A stretch of DNA of 50,894 bases from Pseudomonadota bacterium. Its GTDB lineage: Bacteria > Desulfobacterota > Desulfobacteria > Desulfobacterales > JBDRRP01. Each line of letters starts with the position of its first letter. Position 1 is the first letter of the stretch. Positions 36,001-42,000 of the stretch are shown in pieces. The position numbers are program-made. The stretch covers positions 1 through 50,894 of the forward strand of contig JBDRRP010000006.1 of the NCBI GenBank assembly GCA_043825735.1. The letters are read 5' to 3'.

Positions 36001-39000
36001 TCGGCCCGCCGGCCCCGGGGTCGCACAGGCCGGCAGACACGATGGCGTTCATCAGTCGGTCGGCTGCTAGGCCATCTACAAGGGGTTCGCGCAGCAGATA
36101 CCCGGCCTGGTAGTTTTCCGGGGATGTCTCAAGCAGCCACGATGGTTCCAGGGTCAGCCGCTCCAGGGGAACCTTGCTGCCCACATCGTCGAGCATGACC
36201 GCGTGCAGGGCCCGGAAATGCTTTTTCTGCCGTCGATATTCCCCATCCTCACCAGGTTCAAATACCGATAGGCTGAAGTAGTTGTTGGCATCAGACGGTA
36301 AATCGGCAGCCCGGACGCTGATCCCGTGCCACGATCTACCAGCCCAGGCCTTGCTCGGCACAGTGGCGGGGTTGCCTTTGAAGCTGACTACCACCGGCAA
36401 CGACCCAGCAGTCTCATGGCCGAAGACCGCCAGCAGGAAATCATTGTTGCCGACGACATCGGTTTCATCGGTTTTTCCGGTTTCTTCCGGATTGGATCGA
36501 AAAACTGTCATGTCAGATTTCATAACTGCGCCCATCGCATGGCATTCTTTCTAGTTGCTTCCAGCGTTGACACCAACTCGCGGATTTCATCATCTGACTT
36601 GCCGGCGATGCGTGCCGCATTGAGAGTCTCCACCTCATTGGATGGCCAGCCGACCGCCCGCGCGCCAAGTGGCACAGGTCTTGTCCAAAGTCCTTGCTCA
36701 ATCCGCAGGTAGATGGTGGAGCGTGAAAGGCCAGATTCTCGCTTTACGTCGGGCATTCTAAGAATAGTGCGCTTCATTTCTCTACCTCCATTGCCTCAAT
36801 TCGAATAAAAAACCCCCGAGAGACTGGCCCGGCGAAAGGCTCTCTCGGGGGTGCTTCAACGCATTAAGGGCGTTGTTGCCTGAATCGGATGGTCGCCGGA
36901 CCAAGCCTACACTTGGGTGGCGCTACATCCGGCATTGCAGATGCTACAAATCGCGTAGCATCTGGAAAAAATCAGCTATTTTGAGTGGGTGTTGAGGACC
37001 AGGTTAAGCCGTCACGAGGCACATAGCTCAACGTGTGACCTAAGTTCAGGATGGGTTTTTGAAGATGATCTGAAAGCGGTCTGTCATATTGTTTGATTTT
37101 TCCTAGAGCACGGCGAATCGCATTGCCGACTCGATTCCTGACCTTATTACGGTCATCACCGAGTTTGCGAATTACGCCGCCGGGCCCCTTGGCATTTTCC
37201 AGTTCTGATTCTATCCATCCTTTTTCGGATAACAACGAGTCAACCTTGCCAAGATCATTATCAGCTCGGGCATTTTCAAGTTGCCCCTCAATCTCTTGCA
37301 GCCTGGTGTGGTATGAACGGACGGCATCTTCATCTATCACAGGGCCTGCATCCGTCTGCCCAAGAACACTTGCCGCCTCTTCAGTAGGGGTTTCTCCGGC
37401 AGAGACTGACCCGCAAAGTTCGTTTTTGGTCATCCGTCTTGCCATGACATCAAGTTCCGATGCCGAAAAAGTCTCGGCCGGATTCTCTAAAAGGATTTGA
37501 AGGTGGGTAAAACCGATGTCTGGGGTGTAAATCTTTTCTTCATTGCCATCGTATCGAATCGCCCAGCACTGCCCCTTGGTACAAATATAGTTGTCTGCCA
37601 ATTCACAAACAGGTTCAGGATCTGAAACTTCCGGACCTGCTTGCACGCCACTAGAATCGCAAACCAACCGAAGAAGACAGCTTGAAGGCAATTGCCGCTT
37701 TCGGATCGCACTCCGGTTCTGGGCTATGGCATCATCTACAACCTTTGTGACGAACTTGGCATGCCGGCGATGCAATTCATATATTTGCAGCCCAATGGTG
37801 TCTGGCGAGCCGTTGAGATGTTTGAGAACCCGTGCGGCCTCACCATACCGTCCAAAAAAATCCAGAGCGGTCAAATCTGCGAGTTCATTTGCTGTTTCCA
37901 CATAAGCCGCCAACATTGCTTTCGGTTCGCCTTTTTTCCGTTCACCAACCAACAGATCAACACCGTAGGCTTCTTTTGGATCATGCTTTCCAGCATCTGC
38001 GGCAAGTATCGCAAACCTCCGGTCAATGCACTGAGAACATGTTCCGCAATGGGTGTGGAGCTTAGTCATTTCCCATGTGTGAGTACAGGACGTTGCAAAT
38101 TTTATGGTATCTGCGCAATCTGCTTTGACGATGTCATTTATGACTTCTGTCTTTGTTTTCCAAAGAAAAGGATTCTCTACGGTGAAGGGTTTTCCGGACA
38201 ACGTAGAGAAAATATCTGCGAAGCCATTGATGACTTGCGGATGGGTTGTTCGCGTAGCCCTTGCCCCCACGACCTGCGCTGATAGAGGAAGATTGAAACT
38301 GATAATTCCGTTTTCATAAAACCGAATTCTATGGAGATTGAACATTTGAGCTACCGTTGCACCTAGGGCAGCATATAAAAATGATCGACTTCGCTGGGTG
38401 TATTCTCGCCCGAGAAATTTTTTCTTGTTAATAGTGATGGGGATATGCAGGGGCTTGTGAGCCGCTGCTGATGATAAAAGTTCCAGCAGTTTTCTATGCC
38501 GTCGATTCAGCTTATGCGTCGGTTTATGAGTGACCATTACGATTTTTCGTGAATTCGCCACGGCCTCTTCAACAGCCCCTCCAAGGGAATCGAGCCCTCC
38601 GGAAAACAGCATGACTTCCTCCGGCGGATCTGCACCGAACTCCAGATAGGTTTGGTTCGGTGGCTGTTTCTCCAATTTCACAAAATCGAAATGATACTCA
38701 TCCTCTGAAAGGAAGCTGAGGGTTTCGATCAACAGGTCTTTCAGTGGTGAAGAATTCCACAAGTCAGGATTCCTGACTGCGATTCTGAAAAACATTCTCC
38801 GCCGCCAGTTTTCCCCGAAATTGTCAACACCGTCGCCACCTCTCGTGACGGCTTGATCCGCGCAGTATACATAGGTCGCGATCTCGACTAAATCATGAAA
38901 CTGGGATGGAATATTTTTAAGGAGTTGGCTGTTGATGTCTTTAATGCGCAAGGACACATTCTCCCCCCTGCCCCATAAATGCAAAGAAATAGGCTTCTTC

Positions 39001-42000
39001 TCATCGAATAGGAGAGCGTCCCGGGTGACATCGCCACAAAGAATTGAGCGCTCATTAGCCATCTGTCTGCGCTCCTTCTTTGAGTTCAGCCACAATTTTT
39101 TTCATCACTACATGGGTGAATCCAGACGCGTCTTTTCTTGATATACCCTTCTTTTCCCAGTTGGTCTTTGAAAACCACCCACCTGAAAATTCCTCAATTA
39201 TCTTGGATGCTTCTCGGCTGTGGGTTCCTAATGCCTTTGTAAATTCACCCTGCTGAGCAAGGGTGCGGAAGCGTCTCCCTTCGCCGACGTGATAAGAAAC
39301 AGCTCTGCTAATAAAATAGTCAAGGCACTTGTTTGTAAGACGGGCGAAAAAGTCTCTTGCGAATATGCTGAACTGTTTGTTGGTGCCAAGTTTGGAAAAA
39401 GCGTCCTTAACATCGTCGGACGTCGTCCCGAATAGGCTTTGTGTGCGGCTTCCGATGATTTGTGTCATCGTTTCGGAGGCGGTCATCTGGGCCATTTCAC
39501 CAAGATCTGTTCTCCCGCCGTTATTGGCTAGTTTCTTGTCGATGGCATCCGAGAAAGCACCCATCACTTCCATAAGACTTGGTGAATCCGACACATCCAG
39601 ACCAGCGCTCTGGAGGGCTTGTCCAAAATCGTCGCTTTTGGCTGCAAGGGGCAATTGAGTGAGGAGCCATACCGTTTCAACCAGGCCCTTGTCTTCCGCA
39701 GCCAGTTTAAAACCCTGCTCTGCAGCGGCAATCGTTGCATTCGCTATTTGCGCAGTCCCAGCTCCGCCCTCGATAAGAGCAATAACTTGCTGCCATTTAC
39801 GTGTGCGAGGAAGATTACCTAATCTTATATGTCCCATCACTCTTGTCCAAAAACCGATTTTTGGAAGCAAATCAGTGAGTCATTGAAAAAATCCTCCTTG
39901 GGGGCAATGTTGATCTGCGACGATTAACAAACGCCCAAGCACCAAGGAGGATGGCCCATGATACGGCATGCGAGTCTTTTCAGTCAATTGATCTCCATTT
40001 TCGACCGAAGCCGGTTTCATAAGCTGGTAGCCGACCGCAAGGCCGAGAAATACGCAAAAGGATTTTCCTGTTGGGACCAGTTTGTTGCCATGCTTTTTTG
40101 CCAGTTGGCCCAAGCCAAGAGCCTGCGCGAGATCTGCGGTGGATTGTCCTGCTGCGCCGGCAAACTTCGGCACTTAGGAGTGCGCCGTGCGCCGAACAAA
40201 TCCACACTGAGCTACGCCAACACCCATCGCCCGTGGCAGCTTTTTCAAGACATGTTTTACCAGACGCTGGATCATGTGCGCATGCAGGCCCCTGAGCATC
40301 GGTTTAAATTCAAAAATAAGCTGCTATCCATGGATAGTTCCACCATCTCGCTGTGCCTGTCACTTTTCCCATGGGCAAAGTTCCGGCGCACCAAAGGCGC
40401 GGTCAAACTGCATATGCTGCTGGATCATGACGGGTATCTGCCTGCATATGTGTATATCACCAATGGAAAACGTCACGAGGTAACCACGGCGCGCCATGTG
40501 CCGTTGGCTCCCGGATCGATTGTCGCCATGGACCGCGGATACAATGATTACGGTCTGTACTCTCAGTGGACCCGAGACGGGATCTATTTTGTCACCCGTC
40601 TTAAAGACAACGCCGACTACGAAGTGCTCGAACAACGAAAAGTGCCACAACGCCGTAGCGTACTCTCTGACGAGCTGATCCGGCTATCCAGTCTGAAAGC
40701 ACGAAAGGTATGCCAGGATATCTTGCGCCGGGTGGTGGTCTGGGACAAAGTCAACGAGTGCGAGATCGTTTTGCTTACAAACCACCTGGACTTTGGGGCA
40801 ACCACCATCGCCGCCATCTATAAGGAGCGCTGGCAAATTGAACTCTTTTTCAAAGCCCTCAAACAGAACCTGAAGGTTAAAACCTTTGTCGGCACCAGCG
40901 AGAACGCCCTTTACATTCAGATTTGGACAGCACTAATTGCCATGCTTCTGATCAAGTATCTCAAATTCAAATCCCGGTTCGATTGGTCGTTGTCGAATCT
41001 GGTCGCTTTTTTGCGCTGGAACCTGTTTACATACCGAAATCTGTGGGAGTGGATCGACAAACCTTACGACGTCTTGCCAATTGCGCCCAAGTCTGTCCAA
41101 GATTTACTCCCACTTCGTTTTGGACAGCATCGTGAGCAATTTGCAACCTGATTTTGAAAAGGCGCCAGATTGCCTCTTAACGCCTTGATTTTACATACTG
41201 CCAGTTAGACGATTCGGACTATTTTGGACAGCAGTGATGTCCCATAGAACACCTAATTCCAATTCTATGATAGCCCAAAATATCTTATCAAAGTTTCGGG
41301 GAAATAATACAAGATCATTTTTCGAGTGCCCACCAATAAATAACCGAAAACAGACTATGAGACACACCGCCAGCCCATGCTACTTTGACTAGTGCACGAC
41401 CGAATTAAGCTAAAACGACGGATTTTATTTGAGTTTTCACTCGTATTTTGGCACAATGTTGCCACATGCCATAGAAATGAGCAGAAACGACTTGGATTCC
41501 TGAGTTCGAGGACACCGCCGACGCTCTTGCTCCGTTCGGGAGCAACTTCTGATGAACGTATCGCCCTCCGCATCGCCTCGGCCGACCCCGTCGCGTAGCC
41601 GCCGAGGCGCTCCGACAGGCGCGATCACACTCGTTACTGGATGAGCGCCGAAAAAAAGCTGAAATGTCGCAAAATAATTCAGTGTGTGACCTGATCTGAC
41701 AAAAGGCGGTGATAGAGTGATCAAGGATCGTTCATCTTCACCATCTAATATTTCGAGGAATTACGATGGGTTTTAGCACTGAATTCCTGTGGGCGAAGAC
41801 AGACGGGCAAGTCAGCGGTAAATGGCATCCGCTCATTCTTCACATGCTGGATGTCGCTGCGTGCGCCGACGCAATCCTGGGCAGAGAGCCGAAAGCGACG
41901 AGAAATCGATTTGGCGCTGTTTTGGGTGGTCAATGGGATGAGGCCCGAGCATGGATTTTGGTTCTGGCGGCCGCTCATGACTTGGGGAAATGCTGCCCGG

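Follow-up and report, generated by a model that had tools for sequence, protein, structure and literature searches.

The closest described relative of the locus analyzed here is the anti-phage system QatABCD, which was reportedly introduced by Gao et al. in 2020. Its QatBC core has been taken up in several papers (Gao, Wassarman and Kranzusch, 2026, PMC13279940; PMC13376578; PMC13639016), and the available parts of PMC13279940 describe the C-terminal helices of QatC as the base of the QatB interface and report that QatB and QatC alone suffice against some phages, protecting against lambda-vir, that a G2D change in QatB abolishes defense, and that Gao et al. could not reconstitute the reaction of QatC. 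QatC also fails to complement a queC deletion, according to the accessible sections of Libby et al. (2026, PMC13329287). A second point of comparison is the deazaguanylation of CdnD by Cap9 in type IV CBASS (Wassarman et al., 2025 preprint), where a QueC-family ligase reportedly takes the N-terminal glycine of its partner into its active site after methionine removal, much as we envisage for the present pair. Unlike the enzyme described below, Cap9 is a minimal protein of ~185 aa that has retained the substrate residues of canonical QueC, and it acts on a CD-NTase followed by Cap10 and a signaling pathway, none of which is present at our locus.

On balance we favor the view that the two genes g00173 and g00172, here termed B and C, form a divergent QatB-QatC pair, carried as lysogen-expressed cargo by integrative prophage-like elements and most likely anti-phage in function (superinfection exclusion). 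The pair would then be a new form of the Qat system and probably a lysogen-expressed defense. The homology of C to QatC, the likeness of the modeled B fold to QatB, the invariant Met-Gly, the coupling of the two genes and their cargo behavior are observed, whereas the complex is a prediction and the chemistry, the DNA binding and the defense phenotype are inferred.

The gene pair and its islet

In the window, i.e., the whole stretch of 50,894 nucleotides that was analyzed, the pair and its surroundings are as follows.

39055-39837, minus strand: B (g00173), 260 aa; predicted QatB-like all-helical partner, presumed substrate
36972-39062, minus strand: C (g00172), 696 aa; QatC-type QueC-family enzyme, as judged from sequence
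37995-39062, minus strand: C residues 1-356; QatC-type N-terminal extension and QueC/PP-loop core with Zn site
37668-37994, minus strand: C residues 357-465; helical extension with the predicted binding region for B
36975-37667, minus strand: C residues 466-696; extra module, modeled as an OmpR/PhoB-like winged helix that a disordered linker and a helical hairpin interrupt
36520-36777, minus strand: AlpA-type excisionase/regulator (Pfam Phage_AlpA 1.4e-11); islet context
33932-36535, minus strand: 867-aa primase/polymerase-like replication protein (phrog_29234 9.8e-94; phrog_19930 DNA polymerase/primase; phrog_4861 DNA primase); islet context
33440-33928, minus strand: 162-aa HTH (excisionase/MerR-like) protein (Pfam HTH_17 6e-6; TIGR01764 excise weak); islet context
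32337-33443, minus strand: tyrosine integrase of the islet (Pfam Phage_integrase 4.4e-8 and Phage_int_SAM_1); context
39958-41151, plus strand: IS4-like transposase, 120 nt upstream of B (Pfam DUF4372 1.3e-27 and DDE_Tnp_1 7.3e-25)

B and C overlap by 8 nt (ATGGCTAA), and the N-terminus of B reads MGHIRLGNLPRTRKW. The first-pass annotation, which had given this overlap correctly, had also placed the pair beside an integrase, which needs correction: the immediate neighbor of B is the IS4-like transposase and not an integrase, and the tyrosine integrase is separated from C by the AlpA, primase-like and HTH genes. The transposase occupies the spot that in many relatives is taken by a LexA-type HTH gene, and no LexA-N-like ORF was found in the window. 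A type I-E CRISPR-cas locus adjoins the pair, which we count in favor of a defensive role. Unlike QatABCD, and as had been noted before, the pair has no qatA (KAP NTPase) or qatD (TatD) gene nearby; no KAP NTPase was found anywhere in its own genome, nor were a QatB or a second QatC. The genome does contain a QueC and QueD cluster.

Sequence and predicted structure of C and B

From its sequence, C is a QatC-type enzyme of the QueC family. The PADLOC QatC model matches residues 53-357 at 1.4e-49 (profile positions 58-367 of 453) and Pfam QueC spans only residues 286-351 (29 bits), both as first annotated, and sequence matches in the PDB include QatC 9vlk_A (1.2e-28, residues 57-355) and 9zee_B (6e-23). 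The earlier statement that SGGxDS and four cysteines are invariant extends to 42 sequences, in which SGGLDS (154-159), C326, C339, C342, C345 and TRTTHP never vary; all QatC signature motifs that the accessible part of Libby et al. (2026, PMC13329287) lists are readable in C and equally invariant, with T270 and T272 as the counterparts of the essential T278 and T280. C shares with QatC its specific motifs, N-terminal extension, T-x-T pocket and Zn site. Unlike QatC of QatABCD, it stays below the NCBIfam equivalog cut-off (193 vs 280 bits), which we count against the favored reading.

Public records carry the name '7-cyano-7-deazaguanine synthase' for C and, together with the Pfam QueC match, this might place C in queuosine metabolism or in DNA 7-deazaguanine metabolism, such as a Dpd-like DNA modification of the element. 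We regard such a role as highly improbable, since C has the QatC motif set in place of the substrate motifs of canonical QueC and reaches just 20 bits with TIGR00364, for which the cut-off is 150.3. In addition, a queC deletion is reported not to be complemented by QatC (PMC13329287), the genome has its own QueC (178 bits), and none of the 124 flanking ORFs scanned in related loci is a TGT/DpdA-type transglycosylase.

B has no sequence match in Pfam, PADLOC, NCBIfam, PHROG or the PDB, and none to the QatB models. An hhalign comparison with 10 QatB sequences was not significant (probability 13.5%, E 0.0021), and with short-tail QatB variants only a 7-residue P..W motif aligned; we count this lack of significant similarity against the favored reading. 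The AF2 model of B (pLDDT 82.3, pTM 0.81) aligns in VIA-align to solved QatB 9y01_A with Z 12.3 (rmsd 4.1, 207 of 215 residues); for an all-helical protein this is close to the values that a shared arrangement of helices can by itself produce between bundles. The QatB chains reach Z 12.3 and 12.0, the match that follows them reaches 7.0, and Foldseek gives TM > 0.3 for QatB chains only.

Residues M1, G2, R5, G7, L9, P10 and W15 of B are invariant in 53 sequences. A Met-Gly start is found in 118 of 120 close homologues and in 128 of 150 representatives at 50% identity, 5 more of which begin with V/L-G-H, indicating alternative start codons. P10 and W15 hold the same positions in six short-tail QatB variants (L085-L090; 231-257 aa). 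Unlike B, these variants are recognized by the PADLOC QatB model (E 1e-13 to 9e-6), start with MGTS, pair with a QatC of normal length (436 aa, PADLOC 7.8e-106) and neighbor a B12-binding radical SAM enzyme (L085, L090) or a KAP NTPase (L086). B begins with MGH and has a tail of ~10 residues instead of the MGTS motif and the disordered 30-90-residue tail of QatB, a difference that we also count against the favored reading.

The predicted 1:1 complex of B and C reaches ipSAE 0.86 (runs 0.84, 0.86 and 0.86) vs 0.00 for the best of 3 controls, a mark that 116 of 157 solved complexes attain, as do 2 of 215 mismatched pairs, although QatBC structures were released in 2025 and the predictor may partly have memorized them. 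The runs share at least 91% of contacts, with a partner pLDDT of at least 84. Residues 377-425 and 460-469 of C form the predicted interface, and residues 3-10 and 15 of B contact C. As in QatBC, the contacts would involve C-terminal helices and an active-site loop. The predicted fold, the invariant Met-Gly N-terminus and the predicted complex support the earlier suggestion that B is QatB-like.

The additional module of C and a proposed mechanism

The first-pass annotation counted about 340 extra residues in C and took them to replace the missing Qat partners. In the predicted complex, ~110 of these (357-465) behave as an ordinary QatC C-terminal, QatB-binding extension, and the ~230 residues 466-696 are the sole part beyond the QatC-type regions, making C that much longer than QatC of QatABCD. 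By its modeled fold (AF2, pLDDT 79.2) this part belongs with the winged-helix DNA-binding modules of the OmpR/PhoB kind, with a helical hairpin inserted into it. This lends no support to the replacement proposal: the module is by its fold neither ATPase nor nuclease and could at most stand in for the reported DNA binding of QatA.

Residues ~490-685 match BaeR (Z 8.3, 97 residues aligned), the GlnR DBD (Z 7.6, 91 of 95) and no fewer than 12 other DBDs of the OmpR family (Z 6.2-7.1) in VIA-align, with CpxR, OmpR, PhoP and others among the fold matches, and one relative (L192) has Pfam Trans_reg_C at this position. As output domains of this type do, the module also ends unrelated signaling proteins, namely REC, AAA_16 and TPR regulators. 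Unlike such domains, it has no Pfam match in the window's C, where its DNA binding is presumptive, and it is broken by a disordered linker of ~25 residues and a helical hairpin of ~50.

We propose that C grips B through its helical extension (377-469) and active-site loop (261-269), and that the start methionine of B is removed, such that Gly2, its amine now free and its short tail conserved (G2, P10, W15), would enter the PP-loop active site. C would then use ATP to activate a carboxylate and ligate it to Gly2. Judging from Cap9 and QatC, this may be 7-carboxy-7-deazaguanine from the host QueD/QueE pathway; the genome's QueC and QueD cluster points to such a host supply, which we count in favor of defense. 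The T-x-T pocket may, however, bind something other than CDG; this and the failed reconstitution of the QatC reaction we count against the favored reading. The winged-helix module would put the complex on DNA, perhaps an operator (self-regulation) or a sensed DNA.

Distribution and mobile-element setting

Of 8000 proteins scored, 3556 belong to the C family at E<=1e-10, and its best 120 members are mostly 673-713 aa and 49-86% identical; these figures match the earlier ones exactly and bear out a widespread short form. A B homologue lies directly upstream of C, as had been claimed, in 68 of the 69 genome loci holding the start of C (it is absent in L028, and internally deleted in L074) and in 74 of 80 viral loci, with a gap of -11 nt in 51 of 59 loci, -8 in 6, +16 in 1 and -19 in 1. 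The description as a two-gene module is sound as to this coupling and incomplete otherwise, as a small LexA-type HTH gene (LexA_DNA_bind only) precedes B in 46 of 65 related loci, unlike in QatABCD. KAP NTPase and TatD are both absent from the 124 flanking ORFs scanned, and 35 of 53 loci have a large serine recombinase, also reported before, no more than 7 kb upstream. BREX, GmrSD, type I R-M and DUF499/DUF1156 genes are beside the pair in only 6 of 53 loci; we count these neighbors for a defensive role and their low number against it. The long form of C is found in none of 50,697 sequenced phages and none of 72,556 plasmids, among which canonical qatC is common; this, too, is counted against defense and sets the pair, which sits on chromosomal prophage-like elements, apart from QatABCD.

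Provirus carriage (141 IMG/VR contigs encode a relative), the match to phrog_1550 of the category 'moron, auxiliary metabolic gene and host takeover', and the action of this enzyme class on protein N-termini (available parts of PMC13279940 and PMC13639016) would also suit a prophage counter-defense or host-takeover function, in which C modifies or B sequesters a host protein, for example to blunt a Qat or type IV CBASS system of the host or some other protein with an N-terminal glycine. We consider this very unlikely: the strict coupling, the invariant Met-Gly and the confident predicted interface argue for B as the substrate, the genome has no QatB, second QatC or KAP NTPase to counteract, and the pair lies in a lysogeny-side region and not among early lytic genes.

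In many bacterial phyla the pair is exchangeable cargo of prophage-like elements, placed beside their integrase, so that its proposed travel at the integrase end can be retained and extended. Among 24 IMG/VR proviruses with an integrase 94-99% identical to that of locus L012, 22 were informative; 12 of these siblings have B-C, and in the other 10 the site holds a different ~3.4-kb cassette, the flanks being 95-98% identical. This alternative cassette starts with a full S24 LexA/CI-type repressor, of which the B-C-carrying siblings retain only the DNA-binding domain, as a 77-86-aa ORF; the S24 domain was present in both provirus records without B-C and in none of the 3 with it, although these records are just 35-53% complete.

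The repressor exchange would suit a pair that serves the element as a lysogeny/induction switch and not host immunity, with DNA-bound C and B controlling either the neighboring LexA-type repressor in its activity or the transcription of the element's early or replication genes. The transcription-factor-type domain of C, shared with signaling regulators, points the same way, as do the position of the pair exactly between integrase and replication module, where immunity regions lie, and its co-orientation with alpA, primase and int in the window. This constant association with integrase and replication modules fits such a role as well as it fits defense and is counted against the latter. We nevertheless think an element-serving role unlikely, because the backbones that carry the pair are of at least four unrelated kinds (serine recombinase with DnaG/RecD; Prim-Pol; AAA_25; tyrosine integrase with P4-like primase), because it lies also at the far end beside gyrA or next to BREX or R-M genes, and because it is missing from siblings of the same backbone, as befits cargo and not a core function. 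Under our preferred reading of a lysogen-expressed defense, the order HTH-B-C resembles a repressor co-transcribed with exclusion genes, presumably as in lambda cI-rexAB.

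The B-C gene pair and its setting

We propose that the gene pair B-C (B, g00173; C, g00172) is best read as a system of QatBC type that does without QatA and QatD, the KAP NTPase and the TatD nuclease of the QatABCD anti-phage system. The two genes overlap by 8 nt (ATGGCTAA) and are coupled well beyond this genome: among the 69 loci in which the start of C is covered, 68 have B ahead of it. B could also be read in a longer frame with a TTG start; conservation sets in at exactly Met-Gly among 53 distinct homologues, 49 of which are without the upstream extension.

Features of the window around the gene pair
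39055-39837, minus strand: B, 260 aa
36972-39062, minus strand: C, 696 aa
36520-36777, minus strand: AlpA-type gene, downstream of C
Minus strand, downstream of C: 867-aa gene, no Pfam match, strong phage primase/polymerase PHROG matches
Minus strand, downstream of C, in the islet: 162-aa HTH gene
32337-33443, minus strand: tyrosine integrase, downstream of C
39958-41151, plus strand: IS4-like transposase (DUF4372 and DDE_Tnp_1), 120 nt upstream of B
11733-16807, left of the islet: complete type I R-M system (HsdS, HsdM, HsdR)
25383-28457, left of the islet: TPR-CHAT protein, 1024 aa
Left of the islet, in the window: two hybrid kinases

The first-pass annotation had placed an integrase beside B; the neighbor is in fact the DUF4372 and DDE_Tnp_1 transposase at 39958-41151, and the genes of Cas3, Cse1, and Cse2 lie beyond it on the B side. 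With its type I R-M system, TPR-CHAT protein and type I-E CRISPR-cas locus, the window is a defense-rich region. It contains neither qatA nor qatD and no tRNA gene. No KAP_NTPase turned up anywhere in the genome, whose completeness by marker genes is 100%, and the QatD model, which also gives hits in 13 of 14 control genomes, finds only one TatD, on another contig. An 18-nt direct repeat (31146-31163 and 41342-41359, 17 of 18 positions identical, 10,196 nt apart) encloses cupin genes, the integrase islet, B-C and the IS, and may represent an att pair or a chance match.

C as a QatC homolog and B as its predicted QatB-like partner

C is homologous to QatC. It is matched over residues 53-357 by the PADLOC QatC model (1.4e-49) and over residues 57-355 by the solved QatC chains 9vlk_A (1.2e-28) and 9zee_B (6e-23), and its Pfam QueC match is confined to residues 286-351. 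The PP-loop S154-G-G-L-D-S159, which aligns with SGGLDS/SGGMDS of solved QatC, is invariant in 42 sequences, as are the Cys and Arg residues of the Zn site (C326, C339-G-T-C342-S-Q-C345 and R348-R349, a CGxCxxC..RR form). The QatC motifs described in the accessible text of Libby et al. (2026; PMC13329287), namely D..R..WxR, DxYxxxF, RxRxxxY, ExG, HP, P(x)4TK and a catalytic Asp, can all be read in C and are invariant in the 42 aligned sequences (D57; D69..R74..W86-R-R88, with a spacer that is 4 residues longer; D121-x-Y123..F127; R224-x-R226..Y230; E250-N-G252; T270-R-T272-T-H274-P275; P298..T303-K304). As pointed out in passages of PMC13279940, T-x-T replaces the nucleobase-binding Tyr/Asp of QueC, and T278/T280 are essential in P. 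aeruginosa QatC; the counterparts in C are T270 and T272.

The NCBIfam QatC equivalog NF041925 matches residues 53-370 of C on profile positions 10-331 of 398 with 193 bits, below its cut-off of 280, and in public databases the relatives of C are named either 'hypothetical protein' or '7-cyano-7-deazaguanine synthase.' The latter name is not supported for C, as TIGR00364 reaches 20 bits where its cut-off is 150 and the genome encodes a separate QueC adjoining QueD, and a common misannotation of the C family is thereby corrected. A role of C in nucleoside metabolism is unlikely. A Dpd-like DNA modification was also considered and rejected, a transglycosylase being absent from the 124 scanned flanking ORFs of related loci, among which there is no KAP NTPase and no TatD either.

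B is QatB-like by its fold, its N-terminus and its position, without sequence likeness. It has no family match and no PDB sequence match, three PADLOC QatB models (PDLC02211, PDLC02212, and PDLC02213) match nothing in this genome, and a B profile recovered no QatB from 301 genomes. When B was compared by hhalign with ten QatB sequences, a co-linear alignment (70-222 vs 82-215) had a probability of 13.5% (E 0.0021), and with six short-tail QatB variants only a 7-residue P..W stretch aligned (1.2%); a claim of B-QatB homology by sequence was dropped on these weak values and the empty profile search. The AlphaFold2 model of B (53 sequences) is all-helical with 11 helices (pLDDT 82.3, pTM 0.81), and the QatB globular domain, against which it was judged, is all-alpha with about ten. 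A Foldseek search with this model gave a TM-score above 0.3 only for the QatB chains 9y02_A and 9y01_A (probability 0.93 and 0.90, TM 0.57 by target). VIA-align superimposed 207 of 215 residues on 9y01_A (model 8-257 vs chain 64-287, rmsd 4.1) with a Z of 12.3, which for helical proteins is not far above chance arrangements; the second QatB scored 12.0 and the next chain 7.0. What gives this modeled match its weight is the full co-linear coverage together with the gap to the next chain.

The N-terminus is the strongest single QatB-like feature of B. Its residues M1, G2, R5, G7, L9, P10, and W15 do not vary across 53 sequences, and the pattern MG-x7-P-x4-W opens 118 of 120 close homologs. Among 150 representatives at 50% identity, 128 start with MG and most of the others are fragments; five further B representatives start with V/L-G-H, which likely indicates alternative start codons. 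B itself begins with MGH, compared with MGTS in QatB, and its tail has about 10 residues compared with 30-90. According to the accessible parts of PMC13279940, Gly2 is essential after methionine removal in QatB and in the CD-NTase substrates of Cap9, and Pro16 and Trp18 of the QatB tail are also important, while passages of PMC13639016 report detection of an NDG-modified GTSKAY peptide of QatB. By analogy, C would ligate 7-deazaguanine carboxylate to Gly2 of B. Ten QatB genes were recovered from 301 genomes of the phylum, six of them short-tail variants of 231-257 aa in which P10 and W15 have the same positions as in B.

A complex of the two proteins is predicted with high scores. B and residues 1-470 of C, each with its own alignment, were modeled alongside three controls, and the ipSAE was 0.86 (runs 0.84, 0.86, and 0.86) vs 0.00 for the best control, a level that 116 of 157 solved complexes but just 2 of 215 mismatched pairs attain; since QatBC structures were released in 2025, the result shows likeness and may in part reflect memorized structures. 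The contact agreement between runs was at least 91% and the partner pLDDT at least 84. On C the predicted interface comprises the helical stretch after the QueC core (377-425 and 460-469), the loop before TRTTHP (261-269) and, further, 74-87, 112-123, 222, and 343, and on B residues 3-10 and 15 make contact, their partners on C including 74-87, 222, 261-269, and 343. This predicted interface mirrors the published one of QatBC, in which the C-terminal helices and the N265-H282 loop take part and the tail occupies the active site. About 340 residues of C had been noted as being without any family, and the position of the interface on the helical stretch suggests that some 110 of these are the normal QatB-binding extension, which leaves residues 466-696 as truly extra.

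A further Qat variant is found in two other genomes (L085:135-3378 in G184 and L090:1183-3232 in G154), in which a B12-binding radical SAM enzyme (336 or 436 aa) is encoded directly upstream of a short-tail QatB with the MGTS start, P10 and W15, and QatC is of normal length (436 aa, PADLOC QatC 7.8e-106). No KAP NTPase was seen in the examined stretch of either locus. The only neighbors that the PMC13329287 supplement gives for the QatC cluster of Libby et al. are KAP_NTPase (34%) and TatD (34%).

The C-terminal module of C

In our best reading, a predicted winged-helix tail ties C to DNA or serves to regulate it there. In the model of residues 466-696 (43 sequences, pLDDT 79.2), three short strands and two successive helices are followed by a disordered stretch of about 25 residues, a long hairpin of helices, two further helices and a small hairpin; the OmpR/PhoB fold with which it was compared has an N-terminal beta-sheet, three helices and a C-terminal hairpin wing. 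The fold search of this part that the first-pass annotation lacked gave nothing by Foldseek at E<=1e-3, and among 48,161 chains VIA-align placed OmpR/PhoB-type DNA-binding domains on top, led by BaeR (Z 8.3, 97 residues) and the GlnR domain (Z 7.6, 91 of 95) and followed by CssR, CpxR, ArlR, VanR, AdeR, CadC, VicR, OmpR-C, KdpE, ToxR, PrrA, and PhoP (Z 7.1-6.2). OmpR-family domains provide the top two and at least 14 of the top 31 rows (85-98 residues aligned, rmsd 2.7-4.6) at Z 8.3-6.2, where about 8 is a typical best score of unmatched models. The matches span model residues from about 24 to 219, which suggests a winged helix split by the linker and the hairpin. Pfam PF00486 (Trans_reg_C) does not match the window's C at E<=0.01, and ESM Atlas gave only unnamed clusters (0.89-0.90) for the module.

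The module is portable. Of 301 genomes, 14 contain a match to its profile at E<=0.01, in nine cases with a value below 1e-10, and only three contain B. It forms the end of an AAA_16 ATPase (1070 aa), a REC-cyclase (568 aa), a REC-TPR protein (844 aa), a TPR protein (739 aa), an alpha/beta-hydrolase (472 aa) and several family-less proteins, and a search among proteins of 1219-3480 aa yielded no other carriers. In a 639-aa IMG/VR relative (L192), whose tail does not match the module of C, Pfam recognizes a true Trans_reg_C domain at 566-619 (33.7 bits vs a cut-off of 26.2), and both this domain and the portability of the module agree with an OmpR-type tail. In locus L050 (4006-9057) a 1683-aa ORF just upstream of B combines a DnaG CHC2 zinc ribbon, RVT_1 and the C-type module (E 1.7e-19), and C is split there into two ORFs by about 870 nt. 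Found at the end of unrelated proteins, including this one, the module behaves as a putative DNA-binding output domain.

The window's genome encodes a second module-ending protein (616 aa, no Pfam family, E 4.8e-12; L118:2110-3960), in which the module match (G000:C73:44606-45265) has one TAG inside. The representative protein P0261 (1079 aa) seems to fuse B and C in one frame and ends in a calcineurin-like phosphoesterase, which matches PADLOC PDC-S60 and the 'Effector endonuclease' model, rather than in the winged-helix module, suggesting that the tail of C is exchangeable; as P0261 starts with MHP and not MG, faulty gene calling may account for its start or for the fusion.

Distribution and the exchangeable cassette beside the recombinase

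Of 8000 proteins scored, 3556 fall into the C family at E<=1e-10, and B forms 1253 clusters at 90% identity; at 50% identity, 1696 B representatives match at E<=1e-3, 1202 at E<=1e-10 and 500 at E<=1e-30. Judging by the titles of their records, the 78 genome loci belong to many phyla, and culturable carriers among them include strains of Desulfosarcina, Hydrogenophaga, Caldimonas, and Comamonas. Flanking ORFs of at least 150 aa within 7 kb were collected from 53 loci (458 ORFs, 287 clusters), and the 124 representatives scanned were all 42 clusters with at least two members and the singletons of 16 chosen loci, minus eight, so that the following counts are lower bounds because 163 singleton clusters fell outside the scan. 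In at least 35 of the 53 loci a large serine recombinase is encoded upstream, in many cases together with DUF2924, and at least 26 have a phage-type replication module (AAA_24, DUF669, PD-(D/E)XK, RecD-like helicase, DnaG- or Prim-Pol-type primase). Known defense genes (BREX PglZ/BrxL, GmrSD, type I R-M, DUF499/DUF1156) are found in at least 6 of the 53. In one group of loci B-C is the last gene pair before the chromosomal gyrA.

In IMG/VR, 141 viral contigs encode a relative, and the 80 loci that were kept include 74 with B upstream, 79 with the C ORF and 63 with the same tail. Several of these records are proviruses, a label that rests on IMG/VR classing; in five long viral records there is no Phage_capsid, and portal-like matches occur below the cut-off in two. 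A long-form C was not found in 50,697 phage records or in 72,556 plasmids, among which canonical qatC is common. In our best reading, B-C travels on integrative elements, prophage-like ones and others, with expression from the lysogeny side.

B-C behaves as cargo of such elements. With the serine recombinase of locus L012 as bait, 24 proviruses with a 94-99% identical enzyme were recovered, 12 with B-C and 12 without, of which ten are informative, as L215 and L218 have too little upstream DNA. The flanks of these siblings are 95-98% identical and only a segment of about 3.5 kb differs. In nine of the ten the alternative segment encodes a 223-aa LexA/CI-type repressor (LexA_DNA_bind and Peptidase_S24) followed by proteins of 388 and 378 aa, which in the tenth (L207) stand alone. 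This marks a hotspot by the serine integrase in which B-C alternates with a cassette of S24 repressor and the 388-aa and 378-aa proteins. These two have no Pfam or PADLOC family and are a candidate exclusion or defense pair; the cassette is seen at L204:5011-7952 and in nine siblings (L203, L205-L209, L214, L216, and L219).

Carriers of B-C have an ORF of 77-86 aa that ends about 35 nt before B and is 60-64% identical to the DNA-binding domain of the siblings' S24 repressor. The notion that B-C replaces the prophage repressor outright was rejected for this reason, as the carriers keep a LexA_DNA_bind-only ORF with this identity to the N-domain. Pfam LexA_DNA_bind matches the ORF with 48-56 bits in all four cases checked. 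It is present in 46 of the 65 genome loci with B, and three of the 19 without it have less than 150 nt of upstream DNA. It is found in L003 and L026 and is missing from close relatives such as L001, L002 and L004-L009 and from the window, where the transposase occupies its spot (39838-41151); in this genome the IS4-like insertion may have cost B-C its native regulator or promoter. The DNA upstream of B is not conserved among close relatives, except in L003 and L026, and eight loci have no common direct or inverted repeat there that could be a shared operator.

What emerges is a regulator gene followed by a cassette of two genes that can be exchanged, located beside the integrase and pointing away from it. 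In phage lambda, cI-rexAB has the repressor co-transcribed with exclusion genes, and the HTH-B-C order recalls this arrangement by analogy. The anti-phage effect that our preferred QatBC-type reading would entail has one main rival of real weight, that the cassette serves the regulation of the mobile element itself, which is favored by the predicted DNA-binding tail of C, by the position of B-C and by the loss of the S24 domain in B-C carriers (present in two of two records without B-C and none of three with it, the records being only 35-53% complete). A counter-defense role of B-C is unlikely. As the siblings swap 'full S24 repressor and two genes' for 'repressor DNA-binding domain, B and C' in the same place, one could go further and imagine HTH-B-C as a new type of prophage immunity region, in which DNA-bound C would write a nucleobase mark on the N-terminus of B, and this mark, instead of RecA-driven S24 self-cleavage, would make the LexA-type repressor fragment, and with it prophage transcription, respond to the cell's state or to a phage entering it; we regard this as a long shot.

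For the defense-system field, the QatBC-type reading of B-C would offer a simpler natural form of the unsolved Qat system, placed on DNA. Reconstitution of the QatC reaction has so far not been achieved, and a natural minimal form provides handles. QatA and QatD would be dispensable not just in truncated constructs but also naturally, across a family of over 3500 proteins, and the predicted fusion of the enzyme to a DNA-binding domain would put its action or control on DNA. The substrate tail of about 10 residues, compared with 30-90, may also ease structural and in vitro work. The accessible text of PMC13279940, PMC13376578, PMC13639016, and PMC13329287 has no QatC of about 700 aa, DNA-binding fusion, recombinase linkage or QatB without sequence likeness, a form that could stand in supplementary files of the three Nat Commun papers, in the external data cited by PMC13329287 (Biochem J) or in the main text of PMC13434339 (the QatD paper).

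Shortly downstream of C and ahead of the replication genes, several element types encode a sigma-70-like protein of about 194-244 aa with weak region 2 and region 4 matches (L013:12799-13383; also L007 and L069), which may be the element's own sigma factor.
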